Shown here one piece after another: positions 27,497-33,399 of a stretch of DNA of 64,000 nt. Made by a program: the position numbers and the translations under genes. This DNA is from Escherichia coli (GTDB lineage Bacteria; Pseudomonadota; Gammaproteobacteria; Enterobacterales; Enterobacteriaceae). The notes beneath the pieces were generated by a model. The model was not told the DNA's origin. It did not search any database and was given only the letters and a program-made list of their open reading frames with translations. The stretch is taken from assembly GCF_030013205.1 (NCBI RefSeq), contig NZ_CP122648.1. One strand, written 5' to 3'. The first letter of the stretch is position 1; each line of letters begins with the position of its first letter.

Positions 27497-30301
27497 ATGA
27501 GTAAACTTTTGGATCGCTTTCGCTACTTCAAACAAAAGGGCGAAACCTTTGCCGATGGTCACGGACAGGTGATGCATAGCAACCGCGACTGGGAGGACAG
27601 CTATCGCCAGCGTTGGCAGTTCGACAAAATCGTGCGTTCCACCCACGGTGTTAACTGTACAGGCTCCTGTAGCTGGAAAATCTACGTTAAAAATGGTCTG
27701 GTGACCTGGGAAATCCAACAGACTGACTACCCGCGCACTCGCCCTGACCTGCCCAATCATGAACCTCGCGGCTGCCCGCGTGGCGCAAGTTACTCCTGGT
27801 ATCTCTACAGCGCTAACCGTCTGAAATACCCGCTCATTCGTAAACGACTGATTGAACTGTGGCGCGAAGCCCTCAAGCAACACAGCGATCCGGTACTGGC
27901 GTGGGCATCGATTATGAACGATCCGCAAAAGTGCCTAAGCTACAAACAAGTACGTGGACGCGGCGGCTTTATCCGCTCCAACTGGCAGGAGCTAAACCAG
28001 CTGATTGCCGCTGCTAACGTCTGGACCATCAAAACTTACGGCCCGGATCGCGTTGCCGGTTTCTCGCCGATCCCGGCGATGTCGATGGTTTCTTACGCCG
28101 CCGGAACACGTTATCTTTCACTATTAGGTGGCACCTGTTTAAGCTTCTACGACTGGTATTGCGACCTGCCGCCCGCCTCGCCGATGACCTGGGGCGAACA
28201 AACCGACGTGCCGGAATCTGCCGACTGGTATAACTCCAGTTACATCATCGCCTGGGGGTCTAACGTACCGCAGACACGTACGCCGGACGCCCATTTCTTT
28301 ACCGAAGTACGCTACAAAGGCACTAAAACCATCGCCATTACCCCTGACTACTCTGAAGTGGCCAAATTGTGCGACCAGTGGCTGGCACCGAAACAAGGCA
28401 CTGATAGTGCCCTGGCAATGGCAATGGGCCATGTCATTTTAAAAGAGTTTCATCTCGATAATCCCAGCGATTATTTTATCAACTACTGCCGCCGCTACAG
28501 CGACATGCCGATGCTGGTAATGCTGGAACCTCGCGACGACGGCAGCTACGTTCCCGGGCGCATGGTCCGCGCATCTGACCTGGTGGATGGACTGGGCGAA
28601 AGCAACAATCCGCAGTGGAAAACCGTGGCGGTTAATACCGCAGGTGAACTGGTGGTGCCGAACGGTTCGATTGGTTTTCGCTGGGGAGAAAAAGGCAAAT
28701 GGAATCTGGAATCCATTGCCGCCGGTACGGAAACCGAATTGTCGTTAACTCTGCTCGGTCAACATGATGCCGTTGCAGGCGTGGCCTTCCCCTACTTTGG
28801 CGGCATTGAAAATCCGCATTTTCGCAGCGTAAAAAACAATCCTGTCCTGGTGCGTCAATTACCCGTTAAAAACCTGACATTAGCCGATGGCAGCACCTGT
28901 CCGGTGGTCAGCGTTTATGATTTGGTACTGGCGAATTACGGCCTCGATCGCGGGCTGGAAGATGAAAACAGCGCGAAAGATTACGCTGAAATCAAACCGT
29001 ACACCCCAGCCTGGGGTGAGCAAATTACCGGTGTGCCGCGCCAGTATATTGAAACCATCGCTCGTGAATTTGCCGATACTGCCCATAAAACGCATGGGCG
29101 CTCGATGATTATCCTCGGCGCAGGTGTTAACCACTGGTACCACATGGACATGAACTACCGTGGGATGATCAACATGCTGATCTTCTGCGGTTGTGTCGGG
29201 CAAAGCGGTGGCGGATGGGCACACTATGTCGGTCAGGAAAAACTGCGCCCACAAACCGGCTGGTTGCCGCTGGCCTTTGCGCTCGACTGGAACCGCCCAC
29301 CGCGCCAGATGAACAGCACCTCGTTTTTCTACAATCATTCCAGCCAATGGCGCTATGAAAAAGTCTCTGCTCAGGAGTTACTTTCACCGCTCGCCGATGC
29401 CAGTAAGTACAGCGGTCATCTGATTGATTTCAACGTTCGTGCCGAACGTATGGGCTGGCTACCTTCTGCGCCGCAGCTGGGGCGTAACCCGCTCGGGATT
29501 AAAGCTGAAGCCGACAAGGCCGGATTATCCCCCACAGAATTTACCGCCCAGGCGCTGAAATCGGGCGATTTACGCATGGCCTGCGAACAACCAGATAGCG
29601 GCAGCAATCATCCGCGTAATTTGTTTGTCTGGCGTTCTAACCTGCTTGGCTCCTCCGGCAAAGGCCACGAGTATATGCAGAAGTATCTGCTGGGAACCGA
29701 AAGTGGGATTCAGGGTCAGGAACTCGGTGCCAGCGACGGGATCAAACCAGAAGAAGTCGAGTGGCAAACTGCGGCGATTGAAGGCAAGCTCGACCTGCTG
29801 GTGACGCTCGACTTCCGTATGTCCAGTACCTGCCTGTTCTCCGATATCGTTCTGCCCACCGCCACCTGGTACGAAAAAGACGATATGAACACCTCGGATA
29901 TGCATCCGTTTATTCATCCGCTTTCTGCGGCGGTCGATCCGGCGTGGGAATCACGCAGCGACTGGGAAATCTACAAAGGTATCGCCAAAGCCTTTTCGCA
30001 AGTGTGCGTGGGCCATCTTGGCAAAGAAACCGACGTGGTATTACAACCACTGCTGCATGACTCTCCGGCAGAACTCTCACAGCCGTGTGAAGTGCTCGAC
30101 TGGCGCAAAGGCGAATGCGATCTGATTCCAGGTAAAACTGCGCCCAATATTGTGGCGGTGGAACGCGACTACCCTGCTACCTATGAACGCTTTACCTCGC
30201 TCGGGCCATTGATGGACAAACTTGGCAACGGCGGTAAAGGGATTTCGTGGAATACCCAGGATGAAATCGATTTCCTCGGCAAACTCAACTACACCGAGTA
30301 G
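27497..30301 (+). pseudogene. narZ: 3'-truncated narZ (nitrate reductase Z alpha subunit): 934 codons of an expected roughly 1246, terminating at a stop codon created at the IS91 junction
   Basis: Translation from MSKLLDRFRYFKQKGETFADGHGQVMHS... is NarG/NarZ-like throughout; the ORF ends ...FLGKLNYTE-stop where IS-derived sequence begins; no narY, narW or narV follow. Confidence 0.85.
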
Positions 30302-30382
30302 GCAGCCTGGCGGCTGCGGCTTGTCATGGTCTGGAATTACCGTTATAAAAAAAGATAATGTCATTGTCTTTCAGGTAGTTAT

Positions 30383-30748
30383 ATGGCCCGTTCAGCTAAA
30401 CCCCGTAAACGCAAACCCGCACCACAAAGAAGCAAACTTCCCCGCTATGTTGTGAAACTTCATCCGGATGATTTTTTTGACGAAGAAGACGCTGAAGTTC
30501 TGCGCTTTGATAATTTTGACGATGCCGTTGAGTGCTGCGCTGACCTGGGTATTCCGTTCTTTCTGGATGCAGGAAACAAAAAGCTGGTCTTCTGGTTTGT
30601 TCGTGTCGATGACGAAGGGTATCCGGAAATAGCCCGCTGTACGGAGCGGGAGTTTGCAACCATTCTTGCCGGTATCAGTGCCGGCGGCATGTACTGCCCG
30701 GAGTGTGGCACGGTTCACTGGCCGGACGGAGTCCCCCCGCCCTTCTGA
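30383..30748 (+). CDS. IS91-family accessory protein ORF121 (121 aa)
   Basis: Exactly 121 aa, overlaps the start of the transposase gene as in IS91. Confidence 0.75.
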   Translation: MARSAKPRKRKPAPQRSKLPRYVVKLHPDDFFDEEDAEVLRFDNFDDAVECCADLGIPFFLDAGNKKLVFWFVRVDDEGYPEIARCTEREFATILAGISAGGMYCPECGTVHWPDGVPPPF

Positions 30749-31935: not shown

Positions 31936-32123
31936 GAGCCGCAGAGGGGAAGTTGCGTCCATTTTACCGGAAACGGAGCAAAAAACCGCCATTCATACCC
32001 TGTATCAATCAGTGTCATCCTGTTTAATAGTCGTTTCCGCTCATATGGTGCACAAGGGGTGTTGAAGAAATATCCGTTTTGTGGTGCTTTTTTAGTCTTT
32101 TGGGGATTTAAATTCCTATCGAT

Positions 32124-33399
32124 CAAGCAAACTCAGGCTGGGTTGCGCTATGAACGTAGCCTGAGCGCACAAGATGATATGAGTGTAATGATGTATGCCG
32201 GAGAGCGAGAAACGACCCAGTACCAGTCAATACCCATGGCACCACAACTTAACCCGTCGCATGCGGGCGGCGTGATTACTCTGCAACGCCATTATCAGGG
32301 GATAGACAGCCGCTGGACACACCGTGGCGAGCTGGGCGTTCCGGTCACGTTCACTACTGGCCTGAACTACGAAAACATGAGTGAAAATCGCAAAGGCTAC
32401 AATAACTTTCGCCTGAATAGCGGCGTGCCGGAATACGGGCAAAAAGGTGAGTTGCGCCGTGACGAACGCAATCTGATGTGGAACGTCGATCCCTATTTAC
32501 AGACGCAGTGGCAGCTGAGCGAAAAACTGTCGCTGGATGCTGGCGTGCGCTACAGCTCCGTGTGGTTTGATTCCAACGACCATTACGTTACTCCGGGTAA
32601 CGGCGATGACAGCGGTGATGCCAGTTATCACAAATGGCTACCTGCCGGATCGTTAAAATATGCAATGACCGACGCCTGGAATATCTATCTGGCAGCCGGG
32701 CGTGGTTTTGAAACGCCGACGATTAATGAGCTCTCTTATCGCGCTGATGGGCAAAGCGGTATGAACTTTGGTTTAAAACCATCCACCAACGATACAATTG
32801 AAATCGGCAGTAAAACGCGTATTGGTGATGGGCTGCTTAGTCTCGCATTGTTTCAGACCGACACTGATGATGAAATTGTTGTCGATAGCAGTAGCGGTGG
32901 GCGTACGACCTACAAAAATGCCGGAAAGACCCGTCGTCAAGGAGCTGAAATGGCATGGGATCAACGTTTCGCGGGAGATTTTCGTGTAAAAGCGTCCTGG
33001 ACCTGGCTCGATGCGACCTATCGCAGCAATGTTTGCAATGAACAGGATTGTAACGGTAATCGGATGCCAGGGATCGCCCGTAATATGGGCTTTGCGTCGA
33101 TAGGTTATGTACCGGAGGATGGCTGGTATGCAGGTACGGAAGCGCGTTATATGGGCGATATTATGGCAGATGATGAAAATACGGCCAAAGCGCCGTCTTA
33201 TACTCTCGTCGGCTTATTCACCGGGTATAAATACAATTACCACAATTTAACTGTGGATTTATTTGGTCGTGTCGATAATTTATTCGATAAAGAATACGTT
33301 GGTTCTGTCATTGTCAATGAGTCAAACGGGCGATATTACGAACCTGCGCCCGGGCGAAATTATGGTGTCGGCATGAATATTGCGTGGCGATTTGAGTAA
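32124..33399 (+). pseudogene. yncD: 5'-truncated TonB-dependent outer membrane receptor (C-terminal about 425 aa of the barrel; plug and signal peptide missing), positional equivalent of yncD
   Basis: ORF 32059-33399 begins inside the IS element; the translation from about 32124 onward is beta-barrel-like (alternating aromatic/hydrophilic strands) and the gene lies convergent with mcbR as yncD does. Confidence 0.7.

Follow-up and report, generated by a model that had tools for sequence, protein, structure and literature searches.

Nested deletions anchored on a narZ::IS91 insertion in a porcine Escherichia coli lineage, and a sister genome with a two-copy intermediate

The 64,000-nucleotide stretch of Escherichia coli DNA that is analysed here (the window; contig NZ_CP122648.1 of assembly GCF_030013205.1) is 100% identical to the chromosome, NZ_CP122643.1, of ETEC4079, which was isolated in Belgium from pig faeces. 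It carries an intact 1,829-bp copy of the insertion sequence IS91 (window 30295-32123, + strand) between the front of narZ, the gene for the alpha subunit of nitrate reductase Z, and the back of pqqU (yncD), the gene for a TonB-dependent receptor of pyrroloquinoline quinone (PQQ); the DNA that separates these genes in K-12 and in IS91-free sister strains is missing. A first reading of the sequence without database searches (referred to below as the sequence-only reading) took the arrangement for the fossil of an IS91 deletion event. The event does not stand alone: in the lineage at least four different deletions, that of the window among them, are anchored on the same narZ::IS91 insertion. One further genome, GCA_030346235.1, has two identical IS91 copies in direct orientation, the second of them inserted at precisely the pqqU site at which the deletion of the window ends. 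Insertion of IS91 at a second site, followed by recombination of one IS91 copy with the other, is the best-supported route to the window, and we put its probability at about 0.8.

The breakpoints are defined to the nucleotide. On the left, narZ is cut at 30294, within codon 933 (K-12 coordinate 1539793), leaving the 5' 2,798 nt of the gene (27497-30294, + strand), which are annotated as a pseudogene by the Prokaryotic Genome Annotation Pipeline (PGAP) and match positions 1-933 of 1235 of TIGR01580; the sequence-only reading had placed the cut correctly and misnumbered the codon, as about 934. The truncated reading frame enters IS91 and stops at a TAG at 30299-30301. Alignments of narZ with K-12 and ETEC1701 stop at ACTACAC, with a native CAAG next, and the IS91-free sisters ETEC1701 and W13-16 read ACAC and then CAAG at the insertion point. 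Because K-12 and the sister strains continue with CAAG at the breakpoint, narZ was hit at a canonical IS91 target. On the right, the element abuts a CAAG at 32124-32127 (+ strand; 5'-CTTG on the bottom strand) that is native pqqU sequence, nt 828-831 of the gene: intact pqqU reads aaaaccat followed by CAAGcaaact in ETEC1701, W13-16, ETEC1748 and K-12. What remains of pqqU, its 3' 1,276 nt (32124-33399, + strand; likewise a PGAP pseudogene), is without the first 827 nt and thus without signal peptide, TonB box, plug and first barrel strands, and it matches positions 248-676 of the 676 positions of the PqqU model NF041535, as expected of the plug-less yncD remnant abutting IS91 at CAAG that had been described from the sequence.

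Relative to K-12, the DNA missing between the breakpoints amounts to 17,554 bp with 16 annotated features, so that the absence of the narZ-yncD genes, put forward in the sequence-only reading, is borne out by alignment. Relative to ETEC1701 and W13-16 (the latter an O139:H1 strain of sequence type ST1), which keep the intact narU-narZYWV...pqqU locus with near-identical flanks, it is 19,729 bp. The losses comprise the 3' end of narZ, narYWV, yddE, nhoA, yddH, pptA, a sulfatase gene, a GGDEF gene, rhs fragments, yncH, yncG, ansP, yncE and the 5' end of pqqU.

Of 5,426 complete genomes, only six have the narZ-IS91 left junction, for which a survey of other genomes had been suggested in the sequence-only reading, and it is identical in all six. 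The 8-kb left flank, aligned in five of the six, is also identical, with three single-nucleotide differences from both IS91-free sisters. The right junctions, in contrast, are nested. In ETEC1748, ETEC4070 and ETEC4071 the right junction is a GAAC in an rhs gene and the loss is 11,859 bp; in ETEC4067 it is a GAAC in ansP, with 16,907 bp lost; ETEC4079, with its CAAG in pqqU and the loss already given, comes next; in K_EC180, from Korea, it is a CAAG upstream of yncJ, which stands behind a tandem pair of IS91 copies, and the loss reaches 32,854 bp. At each of the four right endpoints the intact reference has a CAAG or GAAC of its own. There are 168 same-strand CAAG/GAAC sites in 32,960 bp, and the probability that four of four endpoints fall on such sites by chance is ~7e-10; it was therefore the target choice of IS91 that determined where each deletion ended. 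Since IS91 inserts at a tetranucleotide target and makes no duplication of it, each endpoint carries the mark of a CAAG or a GAAC.

A search for the exact transposase sequence led to GCA_030346235.1. Its contig JAUAMS010000017.1 (945 kb) contains IS91 twice, and both copies match that of the window at 100% identity. Copy 1 is in the ETEC1748 state, with truncated narZ on its left and GAAC and rhs sequence on its right. Copy 2 lies 7,585 bp downstream in the same orientation and is a simple insertion in pqqU: its junctions read aaaaccat, IS91, CAAGcaaact, which is the exact pqqU CAAG of the window, and no sequence has been lost. Between the copies the genome keeps the 5' portion of pqqU together with yncE, ansP and a truncated yncG. 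Over 9,912 bp of left flank and 8,625 bp of right flank there are 0 differences between this genome and the window, and the right flank common to the two includes substitutions in mcbR (33520) and ydcZ (36218), neither of which is present in ETEC4067. With flanks identical and the two copies identical, collapse of the copies into one would reproduce the window base for base.

Two side observations belong to this comparison. The mcbR and ydcZ substitutions are the only two relative to ETEC4067 in the 8 kb to the right of the deletion; over the 4 kb that were compared with ETEC1748, the mcbR substitution is again the sole difference. Both coincide with different McbR and YdcZ protein accessions in ETEC4079. 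Between the IS91 copies of GCA_030346235.1, a 261-bp fragment (locus positions 10216-10476) replaces 546 bp of yncH and the 3' end of yncG. It matches within an annotated IS3-family transposase gene of W13-16 as well as lineage plasmid sequence, and the replacement is a further IS-linked loss between the two IS91 copies.

The history that we favour would have four steps. IS91 from a plasmid of the F18/alpha-haemolysin IncF/IncX1 type would first have inserted by rolling-circle transposition at the narZ CAAG, with tnpA in the direction of narZ, in an ancestor of one sub-clade within the porcine O139:H1-related lineage. The DNA between the ori end of the element and the GAAC in rhs would then have been lost, giving the state of ETEC1748, ETEC4070 and ETEC4071. 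In the third step the chromosomal IS91 would have made a local, second-site simple insertion in the same orientation, 7.6 kb downstream at the pqqU CAAG, and GCA_030346235.1 preserves this two-copy state. The title of a 1999 paper by Bernales et al., cited in PMC13181058, states that simple insertions at a second site result from intramolecular transposition of IS91. In the fourth step recombination of the identical direct copies, probably homologous, would have eliminated one of the two together with the intervening 7.6 kb, leaving truncated narZ, IS91, CAAG and truncated pqqU. The structures, the junctions and the two-copy state are observed directly; the order of events is inferred, and the rhs, ansP and yncJ endpoints may have had a similar two-step origin.

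Deletion by recombination has a documented precedent in the IS91-flanked hly operon (PMC3214074), in which two direct IS91 sequences bracket the lost segment and one IS91 is left; that loss is helped by RecA and is not fully RecA-dependent. The cases differ in that the hly deletion is on a plasmid and its IS91 copies are incomplete, whereas in the ETEC lineage the copies are complete and chromosomal, the second probably having arrived by a recent local hop.

Four points weigh against this history. No two-copy intermediate for the rhs, ansP or yncJ endpoints was found in the 5,426 complete genomes, and a one-step origin of those endpoints is therefore possible. The simple-insertion left junctions that would mark such intermediates are GCAGCATTAT joined to CGAGTAGG for ansP, CCCAGTTCCC joined to CGAGTAGG for rhs and AATAATAACCT joined to CGAGTAGG for yncJ. 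The simple narZ insertion that the first step supposes (IS91, then CAAG and the rest of narZ; junction CCTATCGAT joined to CAAGCGTGAAGG) was likewise not found in genomes or metagenome contigs, and metagenome scans for this junction and for the narZ-IS91 left junction returned nothing. Recombination and a transposase-mediated collapse of the two copies would, moreover, leave indistinguishable sequences, and the apparent relation of GCA_030346235.1 to ETEC4079 is judged solely from 18.5 kb of identical flanks.

The most serious competitor is a one-step adjacent deletion made by the transposase, in which TnpA would nick the ori end and a 5'-CTTG or 5'-GTTC on the same (bottom) strand, join them and excise the DNA between. 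It is topologically the same as the plasmid deletions ascribed to 'one-ended transposition' of IS801, and it accounts for a ter-side junction that is constant and ori-side junctions that vary and always lie at native CAAG or GAAC. The pattern is also that of IS801 on pPsv48C of Pseudomonas savastanoi, where a nested set of deletions shares the ori801 border and has GAAC or CAAG at the other border (PMC6354349). Those deletions are on a plasmid and were read as the outcome of a single transposase step, whereas the ETEC lineage offers a two-copy intermediate for at least one endpoint. With four CAAG/GAAC endpoints and no simple insertion at any of them in the complete genomes (a second chromosomal IS91 was not found in ETEC1748, ETEC4067 or ETEC4079), the one-step deletion was the explanation favoured at first; the two-copy genome demoted it. 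In a sister whose flanks are identical, IS91 sits at this pqqU CAAG as a simple insertion and the intervening genes are intact, so that a one-step deletion in the window would require an independent hit at one of 168 same-strand sites in 33 kb. We consider it unlikely for the window, and a possible route to the rhs, ansP and yncJ endpoints. The sequence-only reading, in which the junction was the relic of a one-ended rolling-circle adjacent deletion, was thus right about IS91 as the cause and probably wrong about the route: the two-copy sister fits recombination.

Since the single-copy window alone does not show which of its junctions is the older, it could also be supposed that IS91 first inserted in pqqU and that the deletion ran leftwards from its ter end into narZ. 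Three observations effectively refute this, and we give it very little credence: intact narZ has CAAG, the mark of an IS91 target, right after the breakpoint (random chance ~0.005); the narZ junction is common to the six complete genomes while their right junctions differ; and the two-copy strain carries both junctions. An artefact of the ETEC4079 assembly, through a collapsed repeat or a chimeric join, is less credible still, for although IS copies are frequent sites of mis-joins and nothing more specific speaks for one here, each of the two junctions coincides exactly with canonical end and target sequences of IS91, the left junction recurs in independent assemblies from Belgium, Korea and elsewhere, and the 7.87 kb of deleted DNA that ETEC1748 still has was not found elsewhere in the ETEC4079 assembly, whose chromosome has a single IS91 place.

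The deletions of the lineage also have a general parallel in the classical IS-mediated deletions (adjacent deletions of IS1, IS26 and IS10, and recombination of one IS copy with another), in which one IS end is fixed, flanking genes are lost and relatives show nested sets. These elements have DDE transposases and make target duplications, unlike IS91, which is a HUH/Y2 element with a tetranucleotide target and no duplication.

The element itself is, to judge from family, domain, motif and end features together with the PGAP and NCBI protein-cluster names, IS91, and the ~1.83-kb IS91-family element with ORF121 and a HUH/Y2 transposase that had been described from the sequence agrees with it in length, domains, motifs and ends. 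Its boundaries were set by the point at which narZ homology stops, by other IS91 copies and by a head-to-tail IS91 tandem, and it is 100% identical to copies on ETEC4079's own plasmids (PGAP name, 'IS91-like element IS91 family transposase'). The published criterion for an isoform is at least 95% nucleotide identity to IS91 V1, X17114.5 (PMC13181058). The first gene, orf121 (30383-30748, + strand), encodes a 121-residue protein with the role of a regulator of IS91 transposition (PMC13181058), for which no Pfam or NCBIfam family was matched. Its stop overlaps the start of tnpA by one base in the TGATG at 30744-30748; orf121 upstream of tnpA with a TGATG overlap is typical of IS91 itself (PMC13181058).

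The second gene, tnpA (30748-31935, + strand), encodes a 395-residue HUH/Y2 transposase with a Zn-binding domain. Its product scores 288 bits against the equivalog model NF033538 transpos_IS91 of NCBIfam (cut-off 125) and matches Zn_Tnp_IS91 (1.6e-18) and Y2_Tnp (1.5e-38) of Pfam; CFRC, CPHC, HPHIH (157-161), YFGSY (249-253) and RYYG (312) are all present. The Y2 catalytic motif is one that we take to be YFGSY and not, as the sequence-only reading had it, RYYG; HPHIH is presumably catalytic also.

At the terIS end (30295-30317, + strand) the top strand begins with CGAG, the complement of the 5'-CTCG cleavage tetranucleotide, and the hairpin GCAGCC-TGGC-GGCTGC follows at 30302-30317. On the bottom strand the end reads GCAGCCGCCAGGCTGCCTACTCG, with a 6-bp stem in its subterminal palindrome, and terIS has been described as a single subterminal palindrome adjoining 5'-CTCG (PMC13181058). 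The hairpin is present, and the fold of 61 nt of bottom-strand DNA is not significant overall (z = -1.1); the oriIS end (32040-32123, + strand), folded as single-stranded DNA, did no better than shuffled sequence (z = +1.8). This end terminates in AAATTCCTATCGAT, as it does in all IS91 copies examined, and on the top strand CCTATCGAT is followed by CAAG, that is, by 5'-CTTG on the bottom strand. A GTTC/CTTG target at the ori end, to which the sequence-only reading had pointed as a check, is therefore present, and 5'-CTTG and 5'-GTTC are the published IS91 targets flanking ori (PMC13181058). CAAG or GAAC lies 3' of the top-strand end in four of the four chromosomal junction types, in the simple pqqU insertion and in one plasmid copy; the IS91 copy of an F18 plasmid has CCAG instead. 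There is no target-site duplication: in GCA_030346235.1 the element parts aaaaccat from CAAGcaaact, where intact pqqU reads aaaaccatCAAGcaaact.

In all of this the window copy resembles the IS91 prototype (X17114) of alpha-haemolysin plasmids such as pHly152, which shares the orf121-tnpA TGATG, the Zn_Tnp_IS91 and Y2_Tnp domains, the 5'-CTCG ter end with its subterminal hairpin, the 5'-CTTG/GTTC at ori and the lack of a target duplication. The isoform is likewise present on hly and F18 plasmids; the window copy, unlike the prototype, is chromosomal.

The same isoform is found at 100% identity on plasmids of ETEC4079 and of the IS91-free sisters, among them pW1316-2, an F18/alpha-haemolysin IncFII/IncX1 plasmid typical of O139:H1. 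This plasmid of the lineage, with its identical isoform, is the probable source of the element. Over the complete genomes, E. coli has 3,138 plasmid and 462 chromosomal IS91 places (~13% chromosomal), in line with the earlier remark that chromosomal copies are uncommon.

Head-to-tail IS91 tandems with nothing between the copies occur on the ETEC4079 plasmid NZ_CP122647.1 (F18 fedA, IncFIA/IncX1) and on the K_EC180 chromosome, at positions 2173-5829 and 12496-16153, respectively, of the extracted loci. Their junction, CCTATCGAT joined to CGAGTAGG, is the ori-ter junction of a circular intermediate. The plasmid tandem is made of two isoforms that are 92% identical (145 differences), and the K_EC180 copies are mosaics of both, with the 1221-1434 segment swapped reciprocally. 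It is possible that the tandems arose by insertion with the terminal 5'-CTCG of a resident copy as target; CTCG is the third most common IS91 'target' (PMC13181058).

A further side observation concerns the right end of the element. An open frame at 32059-33399 has a GTG start inside the ori end of IS91 and continues in frame into the pqqU remnant for 446 amino acids; if expressed, it would yield a plug-less partial barrel. A scan of 30200-32400 with consensus promoters found no sigma-70-like site, so there is no evidence of IS91 driving the remnant.

The five IS91 targets at the locus (in narZ, rhs, ansP and pqqU and upstream of yncJ) are all on the same strand. This strand would be the lagging-strand template of the clockwise fork, as we presume from the replichore geometry of K-12. 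HUH elements of the IS200/IS605 type insert preferentially into lagging-strand template DNA. It is tempting, and on present evidence rather doubtful, to suppose that the bottom-strand single-stranded circle of IS91 prefers lagging-strand template near its donor, so that local hops within one replichore would always give direct repeats. Only two of the five target orientations are free of ascertainment bias, and the present data neither support nor exclude a lagging-strand preference. If it did exist, a chromosomal IS91 would be a directional deletion engine and not a source of inversions, which would explain the nested deletions.

Neither the element nor the mechanism is new, and the biology is ordinary for an insertion sequence; the novelty lies in the instance, in which the nested series is unusually clear and comes with an intermediate. 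A literature search found no publication naming ETEC4079, JAUAMS or a narZ::IS91 insertion. The instance shows how a plasmid IS91 that reaches the chromosome can, in few steps, cost an epidemic pathogen of pigs tens of kb of its core genes; among those lost in the series are the genes for nitrate reductase Z, the asparagine permease and PqqU, the PQQ receptor. With a tetranucleotide signature at its endpoints, the locus is a natural system for the study of local hopping, orientation bias and recombination of IS copies.

Several features of the surrounding DNA were noted in passing. The ydcV gene has a 681-bp internal deletion (window 38922-38929), flanked by an 8-bp repeat, that fuses its remnant to ydcU; it is present in ETEC1748, ETEC4067, ETEC4079 and GCA_030346235.1 and not in ETEC1701 or W13-16, and is therefore a marker of the IS91-bearing clade. 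The ydcO gene (window 47603-48774) is annotated as frameshifted in ETEC4079, ETEC1701, W13-16 and K_EC180, and is thus a lineage-wide pseudogene. In 8 kb of left flank, K_EC180 lacks three single bases that every other strain has; these gaps are probably assembly errors, one of which probably accounts for a 'frameshifted' gene for a leucine-rich repeat (LRR) protein. Upstream of narU the window has an intact porin gene (21855-22955; annotated ompC, WP_000768393.1) and the LRR-protein gene (24446-25699), where K-12 has only short yddL, yddK and a yddJ pseudogene, and the W13-16 porin gene is cut by an IS3-family element.

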